Of a stretch of DNA of 25,844 nucleotides, positions 2 to 7,400 are shown piece after piece. Origin of the DNA: Bacilli bacterium (GTDB lineage Bacteria > Bacillota_I > Bacilli_A > ML615J-28 > CAG-313); assembly GCA_045653225.1 (NCBI GenBank), contig JAZOLP010000093.1:1-25844 (forward strand), written 5' to 3'. Within the stretch, counting starts at the first letter, position 1; each line of letters starts with the position of its first letter. A program made the translations under genes and the position numbers. The notes beneath the pieces are model-generated. The model had not been told where the DNA came from and searched no databases. It saw only the letters and a program-made list of their open reading frames with translations.

Positions 2-472
2 AATGGTCTTGCAACTATTCGATATCTCAATGAAGGAAAAGACGAAGAACTTTTAAAACAATACAATATTTATTGGAGCGCTGTTCATAAGGGCGCAATG
101 TTCGATGCCAGATGCTTTAATATTCCAAAAGAAGAAGTAACCAATCTCATCTTTTGGCGTCAGCTTGACGCGGCACGAAATAGTATGCAAATGGTGGGTC
201 AGGCTTATTTCTCTCACAAAGAGCTTCAAAACAAATCTTGTAGTGATATTCAAAATATGCTTATGGAAAAATACAATATAAATTGGAATGATTTCCCAAC
301 TACTCAAAAAAGAGGTAGTTGTGCAACTAAAGTTCATTATCAAAATCCAGAAGTAGATATAAAAGATGGGGCTGATATTTGTTCCTCTTGGTTTATTGAT
401 AATGAAATTCCTCAGTTTAAAGGTGAAGATAGACAATATATTGAACAACTTATCAATTTTGAGGAGGAATAA
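2..472 (+). CDS. Thg1-like protein (tRNA-His guanylyltransferase / 3'-5' nucleotidyltransferase family), 5'-truncated by window edge
   Basis: The open frame runs in from the window edge. The C-terminal half aligns, by my recollection of eukaryotic Thg1, to ...GFDGRVV.YP....L.DYLSWRQ.D...NN...YNINYNNEP.M.RKGS.... The window shows AMFDARCFNIPKEEVTNLIFWRQLDAARNS...MLMEKYNINWNDFPTTQKRGS. Confidence 0.6.
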   Translation, partial: NGLATIRYLNEGKDEELLKQYNIYWSAVHKGAMFDARCFNIPKEEVTNLIFWRQLDAARNSMQMVGQAYFSHKELQNKSCSDIQNMLMEKYNINWNDFPTTQKRGSCATKVHYQNPEVDIKDGADICSSWFIDNEIPQFKGEDRQYIEQLINFEEE

Positions 473-2185: not shown

Positions 2186-2725
2186 ATGTCAAAAATGTTA
2201 ATTGTAATTGATATGCAAAATGATTTTGTAACAGGTAGTCTTGCAAACCCAGACGCACAAGCTATTATACCAAATATTCAAAAGAAAATTGAAGAATATA
2301 AGAAGAATGGTGATGATATTATCTTTACAAGAGACACTCATACAGTTTCTTATTTAGGTAGTGCGGAAGGTCAGAAACTTCCTGTTGAACATTGTATTGA
2401 TGGAACAAAAGGTTGGGTAGTTGTTGATGAATTAAATCATCCAGAGTATAAGCATATTAACAAATCAACTTTTGGATATCCTTATTGGGGATATGAAGAA
2501 ATGCCAGAAGAAGTAGAATTAGTTGGTACTTGTACAGATATCTGTGTTGTTTCAAATGCTATTCTTATTAAAACACATTTTCCAGATACAAAAATAGTTG
2601 TCGACGCGGCGTGCTGTGCGGGTACCACTCCAGCAAATCACACAGCCGCGCTGATGACAATGAAAGCTTGTCAGATAGATGTAATTAACGAAGGTAATAC
2701 TGTTATAGGCGGAAAGAGAGAGTGA
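2186..2725 (+). CDS. pncA: nicotinamidase / isochorismatase-family cysteine hydrolase
   Basis: The N-terminus MLIVIDMQNDFV and the catalytic-Cys motif GTCTDICV fit the isochorismatase fold. The gene sits immediately upstream of pncB. Confidence 0.75.
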   Translation: MSKMLIVIDMQNDFVTGSLANPDAQAIIPNIQKKIEEYKKNGDDIIFTRDTHTVSYLGSAEGQKLPVEHCIDGTKGWVVVDELNHPEYKHINKSTFGYPYWGYEEMPEEVELVGTCTDICVVSNAILIKTHFPDTKIVVDAACCAGTTPANHTAALMTMKACQIDVINEGNTVIGGKRE

Positions 2726-2731
2726 AGTATA

Positions 2732-3925
2732 ATGATGAAATTAAGTCCTATTGTTGTATCTTTATTAGATACTGATTTATATAAATTTAATATGAATATG
2801 GTAATGTTTCATAAACATACCAATTTAAATGGTGTATATATTTTCAAATGTAGAAATGAAAACATTGTATTTACTTCTGAAATGGTAGAAGAAATTAACG
2901 CACAGATTGATCATCTTTGTACTTTAAGATTTACAGGCGAAGAATTAAATTATTTAAATTCATTAAGATTTATGAAATCTGATTATATTGAATTTCTTCG
3001 CTTATGGCACCCACTCCGCGACTATGTAAAATGTTGCGCGGACGGCAAAGGTGGCTTGTTTTTAGAAGTAACTGGTCCGTTATTTAGTGCTATGCAATTT
3101 GAAATTTATTTACTTGAAATTATTAACGAAGTTTACTTTCGTATGCAATATAACTATTTAGATTTAATAGAATCCGCAAAAGAAAAACTCGAACTTAAAT
3201 TAAAAGGTTTTGAAGAAGGTAAATATAATTTTAATTTCGCAGAATTTGGTTGCCGCAGAAGATTAAGCAGAGAGTGGCAGGATTATGTTTTATCAAAGCT
3301 TCTTACAACTGGACATTGTGTTGGTACTTCAAATGTTTATCTTGCTATGAAATATAAAGTTAAACCTATTGGTACTTATGCACACGAGTATGTTCAAATG
3401 TATCAGGGTATCCCGGGTGTAACTCTTGCCTATACAAATAAAATGGCAATGGAAGAATGGTTTGATGAATTTCAGGGTGACAACGGTACAGCTTTAACAG
3501 ACACTCTTGGAACAGATTTATTCTTAAGAGACTTTAATAAATTACAGGCTATGTGCTATACAGGAGTAAGACACGATAGCGGAGACCCAATAGAATGGGG
3601 TAATAAAATAATTGACCATTATATTAAACTCGGTATCGATCCAAAAACTAAAACTTTATTATTTAGTGACAGTCTTAATTTTGATAAGGCTCAAGAAATT
3701 TATGATTATTTCAAAGATAAAATAAATGTAAGCTTTGGTATTGGAACTTATTTAAGTAATGATACAAATGTTGATGCATTAAATATTGTTATTAAATTAC
3801 AGTATGTAAATGGACATCCAGTAGCAAAGATTAGTGACACACCTGGTAAAGCAATGTGTCAGAATAATGTTTATTTAAAATACTTAAAGAACGCAGTAGC
3901 GTATAGATTGGAGGAGAATATTTAA
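2732..3925 (+). CDS. pncB: nicotinate phosphoribosyltransferase
   Basis: It is collinear with E. coli PncB: LLDTDLYKFNM, FGCRRRLSREWQ, VGTSNVYLA, TYAHEYVQ, ALTDTLGTDLFLRDF, RHDSGDPIEWG, KTLLFSDSLNFDKA, SFGIGT, LNIVIKL..NGHPVAKISDTPGK. It is 397 aa, like PncB and unlike the larger Nampt. Confidence 0.85.
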   Translation: MMKLSPIVVSLLDTDLYKFNMNMVMFHKHTNLNGVYIFKCRNENIVFTSEMVEEINAQIDHLCTLRFTGEELNYLNSLRFMKSDYIEFLRLWHPLRDYVKCCADGKGGLFLEVTGPLFSAMQFEIYLLEIINEVYFRMQYNYLDLIESAKEKLELKLKGFEEGKYNFNFAEFGCRRRLSREWQDYVLSKLLTTGHCVGTSNVYLAMKYKVKPIGTYAHEYVQMYQGIPGVTLAYTNKMAMEEWFDEFQGDNGTALTDTLGTDLFLRDFNKLQAMCYTGVRHDSGDPIEWGNKIIDHYIKLGIDPKTKTLLFSDSLNFDKAQEIYDYFKDKINVSFGIGTYLSNDTNVDALNIVIKLQYVNGHPVAKISDTPGKAMCQNNVYLKYLKNAVAYRLEENI

Positions 3926-4482
3926 TGACAGGAGTAATTTTATTTCGTGCGCAACCATTTCACAATGGACATTTACATATGATTAAAAAGGCTTGTCAAG
4001 ATATGTATCAAATAAATGGCGCATTATATATTTTAGTGGGTAGCGCAGATAAAGTAGGAACAAAAAGAAATCCAATTCCAATTGACTTAAGAATTAATAT
4101 GATAGAGGAAAGTTTAAAAGAAGCTTTAACAGAAGAAGAATATAATTGTGTTTTTGTTTATCCTCTTGCTGATTTAGACGATGAAGCCAATAATACTCAT
4201 AGTTGGGGTAGTTATCTTTACAAAGCTATGCGTGAAGTTTCCGCAGACGAAGATTTTATTATCTACTATAGCGACAACCCAAACATTATGTTAAGTTGGT
4301 TTAATGATGAAATTAGAGAACATATTGCTTTTAAATTTTTACCAAGATATGATGATATTTGTGCGACAGAAGTGCGCAAATGTATTGAAAAAGATTGGTC
4401 AGCAACTCTTTCTACTATTGTACCTGCTCCAGTTTATAATAGAAGAAAATTATTAAAAAAATATATTGAAGAAGGAAAATAA
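3925..4482 (+). CDS. nicotinamide/nicotinate mononucleotide adenylyltransferase (HxGH cytidylyltransferase-like, NadM/NadR type)
   Basis: ILFRAQPFHNGHLHMIK carries the (H/T)xGH nucleotidyltransferase signature in the NadM/NadR context GRFQPFHxGH. The gene lies between pncB and nadE. Confidence 0.7.
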   Translation: MTGVILFRAQPFHNGHLHMIKKACQDMYQINGALYILVGSADKVGTKRNPIPIDLRINMIEESLKEALTEEEYNCVFVYPLADLDDEANNTHSWGSYLYKAMREVSADEDFIIYYSDNPNIMLSWFNDEIREHIAFKFLPRYDDICATEVRKCIEKDWSATLSTIVPAPVYNRRKLLKKYIEEGK

Positions 4483-4484
4483 TA

Positions 4485-5255
4485 ATGAATATAGAAAAAA
4501 CAAAAAGAGAGATTGTTCAATGGATTAAAGACTGGTTCGCGGAAAATGGACCAGATTGTAACGCGATTATTGGCATTAGTGGCGGGAAAGATAGCTCTGT
4601 CGCGGCCGCCCTTTGCGTAGAAGCTCTGGGCAAAGATAGAGTTTATGGTATTATGATGCCAAATGGCAAGCAAGTGGATATAGATGATTCTTATAAGATT
4701 TGTAAACATTTAGATATTCCGTGTATGACAGCAAATATTGAACCTATCTATAGTACTTTTGTAAAAGCCATTACTTATAATGACGCACATTGGTTTAATG
4801 GAAAATGGAATGTTCTTATACCAGGTGGACTTTCTGAGCAGGCAGAAACAAACCTTCCTCCCCGTATTCGTATGACCACACTCTATGCTATCTCTCAATC
4901 TCTTAATGGTAGGGTAGTTTGTACAGATAATCTTTCAGAATCATATATAGGTTATTCTACTCGTTGGGGAGATAATGTAGGTGACTTCGCGCCTCTTGCT
5001 CATTTAACAAGTGAAGAAGTTGTTGCTCTTGGCGATGCTTGCGGCCTCCCGTACGAATTAACACACAAAACCCCAACAGATGGACTTTGTGGAAAAACAG
5101 ATGAAGAAAATTTTGGTTTTACATATGAAACATTGAATAAGTATATTTTAACGGGACAGTGCGAAGATACAGAAGCAAAAGAAAAAATAGATGCAATGCA
5201 TTTAAAAAATGCTTTTAAATTAAAACCTATTCCCGCGTATATCCCACATAGATAG
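4485..5255 (+). CDS. nadE: NH3-dependent NAD+ synthetase
   Basis: It has the PP-loop IGISGGKDSSVAAALC (SGGxDS), and its length and collinearity match NadE. Confidence 0.85.
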   Translation: MNIEKTKREIVQWIKDWFAENGPDCNAIIGISGGKDSSVAAALCVEALGKDRVYGIMMPNGKQVDIDDSYKICKHLDIPCMTANIEPIYSTFVKAITYNDAHWFNGKWNVLIPGGLSEQAETNLPPRIRMTTLYAISQSLNGRVVCTDNLSESYIGYSTRWGDNVGDFAPLAHLTSEEVVALGDACGLPYELTHKTPTDGLCGKTDEENFGFTYETLNKYILTGQCEDTEAKEKIDAMHLKNAFKLKPIPAYIPHR

Positions 5256-5267
5256 GAGTGAACAAGT

Positions 5268-5717
5268 ATGAAAGTAATCGATAGTTTTGAAGGCGAGTTT
5301 GAATTTTTAAGTAACTTTTTTTATAGTCCGCTATACTTTGCTGGTATTTGGTTTTCAACAGTAGAGCATTTCTTTCAAGCTAATAAATTATTTTCAAAAA
5401 ACGAAGAAATGTTTTATAAAATTGCTACTGCAGACACTCCTGGTAAAGCAAAAAGATTAGGTAGAAAATGTGAATTGCGCGAGGATTGGGATAACATAAA
5501 AGATACAGTTATGTTAATTGCTTTAAGAAAAAAATTTAGCAATTCTGTGTTAAAAAAGAAGTTACTTGCTACTGGCGATGCGCTCTTAATAGAAGGCAAT
5601 ACCTGGCACGATAACTATTGGGGCGATTGTAAATGTGAAAAATGCAAAGATATAAAAGGAGAGAATAGACTTGGACAGCTTTTAATGCAAGTAAGAGAAG
5701 AGTTGAAAAATAAATAA
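5268..5717 (+). CDS. NADAR / YbiA-like (DUF1768) domain protein
   Basis: FLSNFFYSP...FSTVEHFFQA...GNTWHDNYWG match the YbiA/NADAR family signature E..FLSNF ... W..N.WG. Confidence 0.65.
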   Translation: MKVIDSFEGEFEFLSNFFYSPLYFAGIWFSTVEHFFQANKLFSKNEEMFYKIATADTPGKAKRLGRKCELREDWDNIKDTVMLIALRKKFSNSVLKKKLLATGDALLIEGNTWHDNYWGDCKCEKCKDIKGENRLGQLLMQVREELKNK

Positions 5718-5762: not shown

Positions 5763-6926
5763 ATGATAATCAATGACAAAAGAGCTTTAGCTTATACTGC
5801 ACGAGTTGGAGAAATTTCAAAAATCGAAGGCGCAGACAATATCGAGCTTATCACAGTTTTAGGCTGGAAAGTTATTGCTAAAATCGGAGAGTTTAAAGAA
5901 GGCGACCTTTGTGTTTACTTTGAAATCGATTCAAAGCTACCAGAAGCAGAATGGTCAGAGTTTATGAGAGCAAGACACTTTAAAGTTAAAACTATGAAAC
6001 TTGGTAAATTTAAAGTGATTTCACAGGGTTTAGCTTTACCTGTATCTGCTTTTGATAAAACAATACCGACAGAAGAAGGCATCGATGTTACAGAATTACT
6101 TGGAGTTACTTATTCTGTAGAAGAAGATAATGTTCGTAAATCAAACGGAGATCCAAATGTTAAGTATCGTTCTATGGCGGCCCGCCATCCAAAATTATTC
6201 AAACAGCCTTGGGCAAGATGGATGATGAGACGCGCGTGGGGTAGAAAGGTTATGTTTCTTTTCTTTGGTAGAAAAAAAGATAACCCTAAAAAATTCCCTT
6301 CTTTTGTTTCTAAAACAGATGAAGAAAGAGTTGAAAACCAGCCTTGGAGAATAGGCGATGGTCAGACATATTTATGCACAGAAAAACTCGATGGTACATC
6401 TTGTACTTACGCTCTTGAAAGAAAAGGTAGAAATAGATTTGAATTTTATGTTTGTTCAAGAAACATAAGACAGAAAGATGAAAAACAGTCTTGCTACCAC
6501 GACCATAATATTTACTGGGATTTAGCTTTTAAATATAATATCGAAGAACATTTAAAAGATTACCTTAATATTCACAAAGATTACAAATGGGTTTGTATTC
6601 AGGGCGAAGGTGTTGGCGCTGTTCAGGGCAATCCACTTAAATTAAAAGAAGATGACTTATATGTGTTTAACTTTATTACTTCTAAAAATGGTAGACACAA
6701 CTCTTTTGAAGGAAGAGATATTATAGAAAGCTGGAAAATGAAATGGGTTCCAATCCTTGGTCAGGTTCAGATGCCAGATACTATGGAAGAACTCAAAGAA
6801 CTTGCTACTGGTAAATCAGTAGTTAACCCAGATGTAATGAGAGAAGGTCTCGTATACAGAACAATGGACGGAAAAGATTCATTTAAAAATGTTTCAAGAG
6901 AATATTTATTAAAACATAATATGTAA
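5763..6926 (+). CDS. ATP-dependent RNA ligase (nucleotidyltransferase superfamily)
   Basis: It has the lysine-adenylylation motif CTEKLDGTSC (KxDG). The N-terminal region resembles an OB/tRNA-binding-like domain (GADNIELITVLGWKVIAK) of the Pab1020/DRB0094-type RNA ligases. Confidence 0.7.
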   Translation: MIINDKRALAYTARVGEISKIEGADNIELITVLGWKVIAKIGEFKEGDLCVYFEIDSKLPEAEWSEFMRARHFKVKTMKLGKFKVISQGLALPVSAFDKTIPTEEGIDVTELLGVTYSVEEDNVRKSNGDPNVKYRSMAARHPKLFKQPWARWMMRRAWGRKVMFLFFGRKKDNPKKFPSFVSKTDEERVENQPWRIGDGQTYLCTEKLDGTSCTYALERKGRNRFEFYVCSRNIRQKDEKQSCYHDHNIYWDLAFKYNIEEHLKDYLNIHKDYKWVCIQGEGVGAVQGNPLKLKEDDLYVFNFITSKNGRHNSFEGRDIIESWKMKWVPILGQVQMPDTMEELKELATGKSVVNPDVMREGLVYRTMDGKDSFKNVSREYLLKHNM

Positions 6927-6944: not shown

Positions 6945-7400
6945 ATGCTATTCTGGTTATTTATAATTTTAACTGTAGTTGGTATCGTTTTATGGGTTTT
7001 AGGCAGCAAAGACTGGAAATACGGTAGTTTTATGTGGGAATATGATGAAGGTTTCTGTCTCTCAGGCACAGTGCTTTCCGCAGTTGGTGCAATAGTTAGT
7101 ATTATAATGATTGCAATAATTAGTTGCTCATATTGTGGTAGCTCGGCATATGTCGCGGAAGACCAAGCAACATATGATTCGTTAATTTTTAAATTAGAAA
7201 ATACTGATTGCCGTGATGAACTTGGCTTACTCAATAAAGAAATTATAGATGAGGTTCAAGCTTGGAACGAAACATTATCCTACCACAAAACAATTCAAAG
7301 AGATTTTTGGATGGGCATTTTTTACCCAAATATGTATGATGAATTTAAATTAATTGATTTAAATAGATTTAAAATTTCACAAGGAGAATACAATGAATAA
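6945..7400 (+). CDS. hypothetical membrane protein (151 aa)
   Basis: An AGAGAGGA RBS precedes the ORF. There are two hydrophobic segments, LFWLFIILTVVGIVLWVLG and AVGAIVSIIMIAIISC. Confidence 0.55.
   Translation: MLFWLFIILTVVGIVLWVLGSKDWKYGSFMWEYDEGFCLSGTVLSAVGAIVSIIMIAIISCSYCGSSAYVAEDQATYDSLIFKLENTDCRDELGLLNKEIIDEVQAWNETLSYHKTIQRDFWMGIFYPNMYDEFKLIDLNRFKISQGEYNE

Follow-up and report, generated by a model that had tools for sequence, protein, structure and literature searches.

A predicted Rnl5-family RNA ligase with an interdomain insertion, and the RNA-repair genes that accompany its relatives

Introduction

Why does an RNA ligase gene lie beside a set of NAD genes, and which ends would its product seal? 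The question is raised by a 25,844-nt stretch of DNA (contig JAZOLP010000093.1 of assembly GCA_045653225.1, filed as a Bacilli bacterium; "the window" below means this whole stretch), in which an open reading frame (ORF) at 5763-6926 on the plus strand had been predicted, from the sequence alone, to encode an ATP-dependent RNA ligase that works with dispersed partners in RNA repair. We analyzed this gene, the other genes of the window, which stems from an uncultured phage of the gut or rumen, and the corresponding loci of related phages. As judged from sequence and predicted fold, the ORF encodes an Rnl5-family (NgrRnl/DraRnl, DRB0094-type) ATP-dependent RNA ligase that is in all likelihood functional. 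We favor, with moderate confidence, the broader reading that this functional Rnl5 ligase is the sealing enzyme of a phage RNA/tRNA-repair toolkit. The structures of Rnl5 enzymes are well described, and the recurrent Pnk, RlaP, Thg1-like and tRNA-array neighbors reported here provide a testable clue to the role of the family, one that points to tRNA or RNA repair during phage–host conflict.

Domain structure and family assignment of the ligase

The ligase gene runs from an ATG at 5763 to a TAA ending at 6926, with a GAGGAG ribosome-binding site 8 nt 5´ of the ATG. Its features are:

5763..6926, plus strand: predicted Rnl5-family ATP-dependent RNA ligase gene, 387 amino acids (aa) (Pfam, PDB sequence match, PHROG 968, Foldseek)
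5763..6113, plus strand: OB domain at the N terminus (aa 1-117), characteristic of Rnl5 (PF21189, NgrRnl alignment)
6114..6290, plus strand: interdomain insertion, aa 118-176, subfamily-specific, basic, aromatic-rich and predicted to be helical (homologue alignment, AlphaFold2)
6291..6923, plus strand: nucleotidyltransferase domain, aa 177-387 (PF09414, NgrRnl residue equivalences)
6384..6386, plus strand: codon of Lys208, the predicted adenylylated nucleophile of motif I (KLDG; aligned with NgrRnl Lys170)

Both features on which the gene had been called a ligase were borne out. The TEKLDGTS motif is present in the translation as motif I (T206-E-K208-L-D-G-T-S213), within a match to PF09414 'RNA_ligase' (aa 202-375, E=3e-17), and the N-terminal OB domain matches PF21189 'PHA02142 OB-fold' (aa 11-94, E=4e-22). 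Because both Pfam domains exceed their gathering cut-offs, a chance match to KxDG is excluded. The protein ends only 12 aa past motif V and has no C-terminal appendage; the lack of such an appendage together with an N-terminal OB domain is the signature Rnl5 architecture (PMC4408790). The exact protein sequence had no record in a protein look-up.

A sequence search of the PDB returned only Naegleria gruberi NgrRnl (5cot and its mutants, E=7e-38), which matched in two stretches of ~30% identity, aa 7-116 (OB, aligned with NgrRnl residues 4-120) and aa 177-386 (nucleotidyltransferase), extending to residue 338 of the 340-residue NgrRnl chain. PHROG 968 'RNA ligase' covers the protein end to end (5e-63). 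We also modeled the ligase with AlphaFold2 (AF2). Since a profile search for more diverse homologues yielded only the same clade (76-77% identity), the alignment was shallow (16 sequences at 55-96% identity), and the model has a mean pLDDT of 80 and a pTM of 0.51. Its N-domain is beta-rich, and the top Foldseek matches in the PDB were all NgrRnl; TM-scores to NgrRnl were low despite the strong E value because the domain orientation in the model is unreliable. The best E values by ligase type were:

NgrRnl (Rnl5): 4e-26
T4 Rnl2: 9e-9
Rnl3 (Palaeococcus; Pab1020 2vug): 1e-7 to 3e-6
T4 Rnl1: 5e-5
DNA ligases: 6.6e-4 or weaker

In its OB part, the model is in addition similar to the tRNA-binding OB folds of Trbp111 and PheRS-beta (E=6e-4 to 2.6e-2).

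Comparison with hidden Markov models placed the protein among RNA ligases, with RNA_ligase above its cut-off and TIGR02306 (RNA_lig_DRB0094) as the best NCBIfam model. The latter score, 100.1 bits, lies below the equivalog cut-off of 151.15 bits, which counts against a simple assignment. Because the subfamily is divergent and falls short of this equivalog threshold, we base family membership on Pfam, the sequence match to the PDB and the fold comparison. The ligase is a new member of a known family: Pfam, PHROG and GenBank already label the group RNA ligase, and viral Rnl5 homologues were noted when the family was named (PMC4408790).

The gene had been described as Pab1020/DRB0094-type, and only half of this label stood. 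The DRB0094 (Rnl5) part is upheld by the NgrRnl match. For the Pab1020 part to hold, the protein would have to be a homodimeric Rnl3 ligase (Pab1020/MthRnl-type) that circularizes single-stranded RNA. The nucleotidyltransferase fold is indeed common to both families, and Foldseek aligned Rnl3 structures over ~200 columns, but the Rnl3 model TIGR01209 gave 15.9 bits against a cut-off of 136.9, and the match to Pab1020 2vug was limited to the nucleotidyltransferase core (E=3e-6, against 4e-26 for NgrRnl). Moreover, the N-domain has the Rnl5 OB fold, and the C-terminal dimerization domain of Rnl3 is absent, as the protein stops 12 residues past motif V. We regard an Rnl3 enzyme as very improbable, and a DNA ligase or mRNA capping enzyme as scarcely credible: these belong to the same covalent nucleotidyltransferase superfamily and DNA ligase structures do appear as weak fold matches, but no Pfam or NCBIfam model of either enzyme matched, the OB domain is N-terminal rather than C-terminal, and RNA ligases are the best matches in both sequence and structure by >15 orders of magnitude. 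The architecture that would have spoken against an RNA ligase was thus looked for and not found, and all three readings are effectively excluded.

Active site and predicted chemistry

Ten of the 11 NgrRnl active-site residues listed in PMC7261155 are kept in the window ligase. The equivalences, NgrRnl residue first, are:

Arg4: R7
Asp53: D56
Lys121: Y117, not conserved; the insertion begins right after it
Thr145 and Asp146: T185 and D186
Arg149: R189
Lys170 and Asp172 (motif I): K208 and D210
Arg190: R233
Glu227 (motif III): E282
Glu312 (motif IV): E361
Lys326 (motif V): K375

The conserved residues are invariant in ten homologues of 34-76% identity, except for D186, which is nearly invariant. 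In NgrRnl, Arg4, Asp53 and Lys121 are the OB-domain contacts to the ATP gamma-phosphate and the second metal (PMC7261155). Two of these contacts, R7 and D56, are kept in the window ligase, and the third position, Y117, corresponds to a lysine whose change to alanine (K121A) is tolerated in NgrRnl (PMC7261155). Mutation of NgrRnl Lys170, the equivalent of Lys208, abolishes adenylylation and sealing (PMC4408790).

Because the active-site residues are conserved, the ligase is predicted to be catalytically competent via the classic three-step route from ligase-AMP through AppRNA to the phosphodiester. By homology, Lys208 would attack the ATP alpha-phosphate to form ligase-AMP, with Asp210, Glu282 and Glu361 holding the catalytic metal and with Arg189, Lys375 and the OB residues Arg7 and Asp56 orienting the triphosphate and the second metal. 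The AMP would next be moved onto the 5´-phosphate end, and attack by the RNA 3´-OH would then create the phosphodiester and release AMP.

Several ligase orthologues carry inteins (L058 8540-10813, as well as L060 and L061; proteins P0238, P0240, P0244, P0257, P0293 and P0307; L and P numbers denote related loci and proteins, respectively). Both mini-inteins and LAGLIDADG inteins are represented, and P0257 holds two. The L058 intein lies directly 3´ of the ATP-binding KTDEER motif (…SKTDEER|CLIAQ…VVTHN|CENQPW), a position typical of conserved, functional sites.

A basic insertion between the two domains

The linker between the OB and nucleotidyltransferase domains comprises ~59 residues in the window ligase compared to ~16 in NgrRnl. 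The additional block, aa 118-176 (SVEEDNVRK…KYRSMAARHPKLFKQPWARWMMRRAWGRKVMFLFFGRKKDNPK), is kept in relatives down to 44-49% identity, is absent in NgrRnl, Microcystis phage Mic1 and Sinorhizobium phage phiM12, and is mostly absent in Pseudomonas phage PAK_P1. It is basic and rich in aromatic residues (17 K/R against 5 D/E and 12 W/F/Y/M in aa 118-177), and the AF2 model places helices at 119-126, 133-141, 143-146, 149-155 and 158-168, with a pLDDT of ~72-86 over the block.

A search with aa 115-180 against 1.84 billion representatives returned only 79 proteins, nearly always matching at ~aa 115-200. The full-length matches were of ligase-like lengths. Among the longer ones (530-1120 aa), six of the seven scanned proved to be Rnl5 ligases with inteins, while in the seventh, P0290, the OB domain alone was detected. 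The insertion thus looks like a subfamily-specific module rather than a domain borrowed from elsewhere. A role as a membrane anchor was considered and ruled out, as the ligase has no transmembrane-like segment and the helical hydrophobic moment is moderate (<=0.49). As the most economical reading, we infer that the insertion probably adds a nucleic-acid-binding surface.

Candidate RNA-repair partners in the window

The ligase had been proposed to complete a heal-and-seal pathway together with a split Pnkp pair 7 kb downstream and a Thg1-like gene upstream. Both sets of genes were found, and all RNA-repair-related genes of the window are on the plus strand:

2..472, plus strand: Thg1-like 3´-5´ nucleotidyltransferase gene, 3´ part, cut by the 5´ edge of the window (PHROG 4717 'tRNA-His guanylyltransferase', 2.7e-34)
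8084..8752, plus strand: lambda-phosphatase-like metallophosphatase, 222 aa, a second, weaker candidate healing phosphatase (Pfam Metallophos, 3e-14)
12296..12319, plus strand: terminator-like hairpin (10-bp stem, then a run of T) that separates the gene run holding the ligase from that of the Zn-ribbon, kinase and phosphoesterase genes
12947..13282, plus strand: small Zn-ribbon-like ORF with the Cys pairs CTKC and CLHC, which shares 4 nt (ATGA) with the start of the kinase gene
13279..13764, plus strand: P-loop polynucleotide-kinase-like protein, 161 aa, candidate 5´-OH end-healing kinase (Walker A GIPGSGKTT)
13757..14359, plus strand: metallophosphoesterase, 200 aa, candidate 2´,3´-cyclic/3´-phosphate end-healing enzyme (PHROG 547 'phosphoesterase', 2.4e-44)

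The kinase and the metallophosphoesterase, whose genes overlap by 8 nt, lie 6.3-7.4 kb downstream of the ligase. The kinase matches Pfam AAA_33 (5e-18) as well as KTI12, PHROG 505 'polynucleotide kinase' (1e-18) and, weakly, the PDB structures of PSTK and T4 Pnk (1ly1); against TIGR04075 it scores 23 bits, with a cut-off of 750. The phosphoesterase carries the motifs DLHFGH, GDLMMGD, GNHD and GHTH, and its L027 orthologue matches Metallophos_2 at 4e-8. The Zn-ribbon-like ORF gave no family match in the Pfam scan, and a homologue occupies the same place 5´ of the kinase in L027/L068.

The Thg1-like gene is real and runs off the 5´ end of the window, its reading frame being open from base 2. The encoded protein shows 56% identity to its full-length L035 counterpart, over the C-terminal half of the latter; the L035 protein matches PF04446 Thg1 at 1e-29.

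The phosphatase at 8084-8752 also matches lambda phosphatase (1g5b, 3e-10) and has a relative in the L035 cassette, encoded after Thg1. It aligns to positions 175-349 of PHROG 8238, a 737-position profile labeled 'RNA ligase' whose first 152 positions match the window kinase. NinI-like phosphatases are frequent in phages, and the link of this gene to RNA repair is for that reason uncertain.

The original prediction placed these genes in three transcription units. The hairpin at 12296-12319, which lies in the gap after the gene ending at 12289, and further intergenic terminator-like hairpins on the plus strand at 738-767 and 15873-15899 are consistent with this arrangement but leave it unproven, as these are consensus matches, and such sites are in total no more numerous in the window than shuffling would predict. 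Among the window ORFs scanned, none encoded a Hen1-type methyltransferase, an RlaP, a Macro or a PARP protein.

RNA-repair genes recur next to the ligase in relatives

No near-identical DNA to the window was found among cultured phages, which leaves it without an annotated close relative. A ligase homologue, always of <60% identity, was detected in 332 phage records, with the annotation 'RNA ligase' in many of the records listed. A metagenomic protein collection contained thousands of homologues of 76-96% identity on contigs of roughly 100-170 kb, and IMG/VR contributed 69 ligase loci of 44-77% identity. The clade is abundant in gut and rumen metagenomes.

We searched the related loci with the window proteins and with the cassette proteins of relatives, and counted partners in the 52 loci with full 10-kb flanks. 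The genes found within 10 kb of the ligase were:

Kinase homologue: 44/52 loci
At least one tRNA gene: 45/52 loci
RlaP (PF10127): 29/52 loci
Thg1-like gene: 20/52 loci
13757-type phosphoesterase: 10/52 loci
8084-type phosphatase: 8/52 loci

Across all 71 related loci, the kinase lies within 5 kb of the ligase in 43, and five or more tRNA genes were found in 34. De-replication did not abolish the kinase link: when the loci were clustered by ligase identity, it persisted in 20 of 33 clusters at the 90% level and in 6 of 9 at the 70% level. Thg1 and RlaP are limited to fewer lineages.

In several relatives the genes form compact runs. The L035 cassette, which has a Macro gene close by, reads Rnl – 88-aa transmembrane protein – RlaP – Pnk/HD fusion – Thg1 – metallophosphatase; L027/L068 have Rnl – 74-aa protein – Zn-ribbon – kinase – phosphoesterase – PhoH, and L052 has Rnl – kinase – phosphoesterase. 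The phosphoesterase thus adjoins the kinase directly downstream of Rnl in L027, L068 and L052. Compared to L027/L068, the window carries two extra blocks: 6945-12946, encoding a membrane protein, the lambda-like phosphatase, a C1 peptidase-SLH protein and an 815-aa MVP/SPFH-like protein, and 14372-16739, encoding a flotillin-like protein and small ORFs. Given these blocks, the dispersed layout in the window is a derived, lineage-specific state that results from local insertions. Dispersal, which had been presented as distinguishing this system from clustered ones, therefore describes the window correctly but is overstated as a general feature.

L070, whose ligase is 85% identical, has the order MazE-like – Rnl – Macro-like – PARP – … – kinase/HD – RlaP, followed by an NAD cassette and LigA. 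Here a Macro-like protein and a PARP-family ADP-ribosyltransferase are encoded directly downstream of the ligase (11193-12848), with a MazE-antitoxin-like gene directly upstream. This layout again associates the ligase with conflict genes that concern ADP-ribose or toxins.

The relatives also contain arrays of 9-20 tRNA genes at a distance of 3-10 kb from their ligase gene. Among the array members are aberrant tRNA-like genes with 35 nt in place of the 17-nt anticodon arm (L001 5573-5662, with homologues in L005, L006 and L015, and L002 5905-5999). They show two interleaved helices with compensatory changes (ATAGC/GCTAT and AAGGG/CCCTT in L001; TTATC/GATAA and AAGGA/TCCTT in L002) and keep a U-GAA (Phe) anticodon-like triplet. 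Such a gene could contain an intron, or could be a degenerate tRNA or a tRNA-like element with a pseudoknot. Unusual length is also seen in other class-I tRNAs of the ligase-adjoining arrays.

Biological role of the ligase

Because repair genes adjoin the ligase in relatives, the heal-and-seal proposal is strengthened: the pathway is plausible, although as a pathway we still only infer it. Healing of the RNA ends would fall to the P-loop kinase (13279-13764) and the metallophosphoesterase (13757-14359), possibly helped by the phosphatase at 8084-8752, and the Thg1-like enzyme would rebuild lost 5´ nucleotides. The Rnl5 ligase would then seal the ends in a duplex-like geometry, with the basic helical insertion of the subfamily probably adding RNA contacts. 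The most likely target would be tRNA, either the host's or the phage's own. A heal-and-seal association of phage RNA ligases is a known theme: the ATP-dependent RNA ligases of jumbo phages have Pnk, phosphoesterases, RlaP and Thg1 as partners in RNA repair (PMC7824862), and Thg1–Pnk–Macro–RNA ligase neighborhoods have been described (PMC2904730).

Several observations weigh against this reading, in addition to the TIGR02306 score given above. The characterized Rnl5 enzymes are duplex-nick sealers that act on an RNA 3´-OH strand and are feeble on single-stranded RNA (PMC4408790), and stem-loop breaks are suited to Rnl1 and Rnl4 rather than Rnl5 (PMC4408790). Given this preference for duplex nicks, T4-like repair of anticodon loops is not the default expectation. 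Loss of DraRnl leads to radiation sensitivity, and the role of the Rnl5 family has been called 'uncharted'. In the window itself, the partners lie 5-7 kb from the ligase, probably in other transcription units, and the tRNA scan found no tRNA gene. The related ligase loci are phylogenetically non-independent. Finally, the bacterial-genome matches to related contigs are bins of metagenome-assembled genomes (MAGs) only.

A DNA repair or replication role, in which the ligase seals nicks between an RNA 3´-OH (a primer remnant or ribonucleotide patch) and a DNA 5´-phosphate while the kinase and phosphoesterase heal DNA ends, as T4 Pnkp can, is the strongest competitor. NgrRnl and DraRnl do seal RNA-OH/pDNA nicks in vitro, for which such a role has already been proposed (PMC4408790), and the Deinococcus radiodurans rnl knockout is radiation-sensitive. 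In addition, the window encodes a denV-like pyrimidine-dimer glycosylase (1008-1466), the Rnl5 gene of Microcystis phage Mic1 lies between primase/FEN genes and an ATP-binding protein gene, and L070 has an NAD-dependent DNA ligase 10 kb from its Rnl. The recurrent neighbors in the phage clade are nevertheless RNA-specific (Thg1-like, RlaP, tRNA arrays and Macro), and the ligase OB domain resembles tRNA-binding OB folds. On balance, we consider a role in DNA unlikely.

Considerably less probable is programmed processing of phage RNAs, such as a joining step in unusual tRNA maturation or RNA circularization, in place of damage repair. The large tRNA arrays that adjoin the cassette in relatives, with aberrant members such as L001 5573-5662 and its homologues, would fit this idea. 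The odd genes occur in some relatives only and not in the window, though; no splicing endonuclease was identified, and NgrRnl is poor at circularizing single-stranded RNA (PMC4408790).

Within the RNA-repair reading, we tentatively raise a narrower possibility, which we think more likely wrong than right: Rnl5 ligases with the insertion may form a subfamily devoted to sealing tRNA, as part of a phage tRNA-maintenance module encoded beside tRNA arrays. Such a module would comprise Pnk with an HD domain or a metallophosphoesterase, RlaP, a Thg1-like enzyme and the Rnl5 ligase, whose basic helical insertion and Trbp111-like OB domain would serve as tRNA-docking elements. If true, the Rnl5 family would gain its first assigned physiological substrate, and a duplex-nick ligase scaffold would have been adapted to tRNA repair independently of Rnl1.

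Comparison with known systems

The window ligase shares with NgrRnl (5cot) and DraRnl (DRB0094) the order of N-terminal OB and nucleotidyltransferase domains without a C-terminal appendage, motifs I, III, IV and V, and the equivalents of Arg4, Asp53, Thr145, Asp146, Arg149 and Arg190. It differs in the ~59-aa insertion, in Tyr117 for Lys121, and in belonging to a phage genome with RNA-repair partners near the ligase in relatives. The PHA02142/PHROG 968 putative RNA ligases of phages PAK_P1, phiM12 and Mic1 are of the same family and domain architecture, but they are only 29-35% identical to the window ligase and have no DNA-level match to the window. PAK_P1 has a short stretch at the insertion site and a different insertion elsewhere. 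phiM12 resembles the relatives in having RNA-repair-type neighbors: peptidyl-tRNA hydrolase, Macro, metallophosphoesterase and nrdC.11/RlaP-type nucleotidyltransferase genes surround its Rnl5 gene.

In phage T4, Pnkp heals ends as a 5´ kinase and 3´-phosphate/cyclic-phosphate esterase and the ATP-dependent Rnl1 seals them, countering an RNA-cleaving host defense. The division of labor proposed here is alike, but the window ligase is an Rnl5 rather than an Rnl1 enzyme, and the characterized Rnl5 members prefer duplex nicks. T4 Pnkp is moreover a kinase-HAD fusion, whereas the window has a separate P-loop kinase and metallophosphoesterase, to which relatives add Thg1-like and RlaP genes. The analogy to T4 pseT–rnlA is thus functional and not orthologous, given that Rnl5 enzymes seal duplex nicks rather than anticodon loops as T4 Rnl1 does. 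The bacterial Pnkp/Hen1 and Pnkp1–Rnl–Hen1 systems likewise combine a P-loop kinase, a calcineurin-type phosphoesterase and an adenylyltransferase/ligase in RNA repair. They differ in their Hen1 methyltransferase, which has no counterpart among the window ORFs scanned, in a kinase from which that of the window is remote (23 against 750 bits for TIGR04075), and in having the Rnl4 domain of the tri-domain Pnkp in place of Rnl5. T4 Rnl2 and the kinetoplastid RELs are nick-sealing RNA ligases too, and gave the second-best structural match, to the nucleotidyltransferase domain (E=9e-9), but Rnl2 has a signature C-terminal domain and lacks the N-terminal OB domain.

The NAD cassette and other neighbors

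The ligase had been described as embedded between an NAD cassette and membrane proteins. The cassette stood: five co-directional genes at 2186-5717, directly upstream of the ligase, encode isochorismatase/PncA-like (nicotinamidase-like), NAPRTase (PncB-like), NadD-like, NAD synthase (NadE) and NADAR proteins. The NadD-like product is a cytidylyltransferase-fold/adenylyltransferase-fold protein. On paper, these would suffice for the whole Preiss-Handler route from nicotinamide to NAD+ and would add an enzyme that processes ADP-ribose. The cassette differs from NARP1, NARP2 and NARP3 as these are summarized in the NARP3 paper, and also from the NAD set of L070 (isochorismatase, PRPP-synthetase-like, NAMPT, NADAR and NadE, then LigA).

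Any one NAD gene was found within 10 kb of the ligase in at most two of the 52 relatives with full flanks, and the adjacency of ligase and NAD cassette is not a conserved feature. A functional tie between them, such as NAD-dependent ligation, was considered and rejected on this count; in addition, the gamma-phosphate-binding arginines R7 and R189 are kept and the ligase has no nicotinamide mononucleotide (NMN)-binding domain. The ligase is part of an island of probable counter-defense genes (NAD+ synthesis, NADAR and RNA repair).

On the downstream side, only one adjoining ORF clearly encodes a membrane protein:

6945-7400: membrane protein gene immediately 3´ of the ligase gene; two segments of its product are strongly hydrophobic

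As in the window, the next gene after the ligase encodes a membrane protein in 23 of 70 related loci. Those of the relatives (for example L035 11187-11453 and L003-L015) are mostly 57-88 aa long and often carry a GAGWFGGWILM motif; the 6945-7400 protein has no detectable homology to the two downstream proteins tested, the 88-aa L035 and the 141-aa L070 protein.

Between the Thg1-like gene and the NAD cassette, 1008-1466 encodes a T4 endonuclease V-like (denV-like) pyrimidine-dimer DNA glycosylase (PF03013, 1.5e-16). tRNA and Rfam scans of the window found nothing. The gene at 16740-17960 encodes a fusion of a PIN domain to a PhoH-like ATPase; as its counterpart directly follows the kinase-phosphoesterase pair in L027/L068, it may belong to the same RNA-metabolism gene set.

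Two SPFH-type proteins represent unusual phage cargo: an 815-aa protein (9842-12289) that matches the Major Vault Protein shoulder, Vault_3 and Band_7 families and a 496-aa flotillin-like protein (14372-15862), both encoded in the blocks absent from the compact relatives L027/L068. The labels of MAG bins with related contigs (Lachnospira, Bacilli, Clostridia and Methanobrevibacter) are inconsistent and may reflect mis-binning. The gene at 8825-9820 encodes a papain-family (C1) cysteine peptidase fused to an S-layer-homology (SLH) domain; together with the GC content of the window, 33%, this fusion suggests a Gram-positive or S-layer-bearing host.

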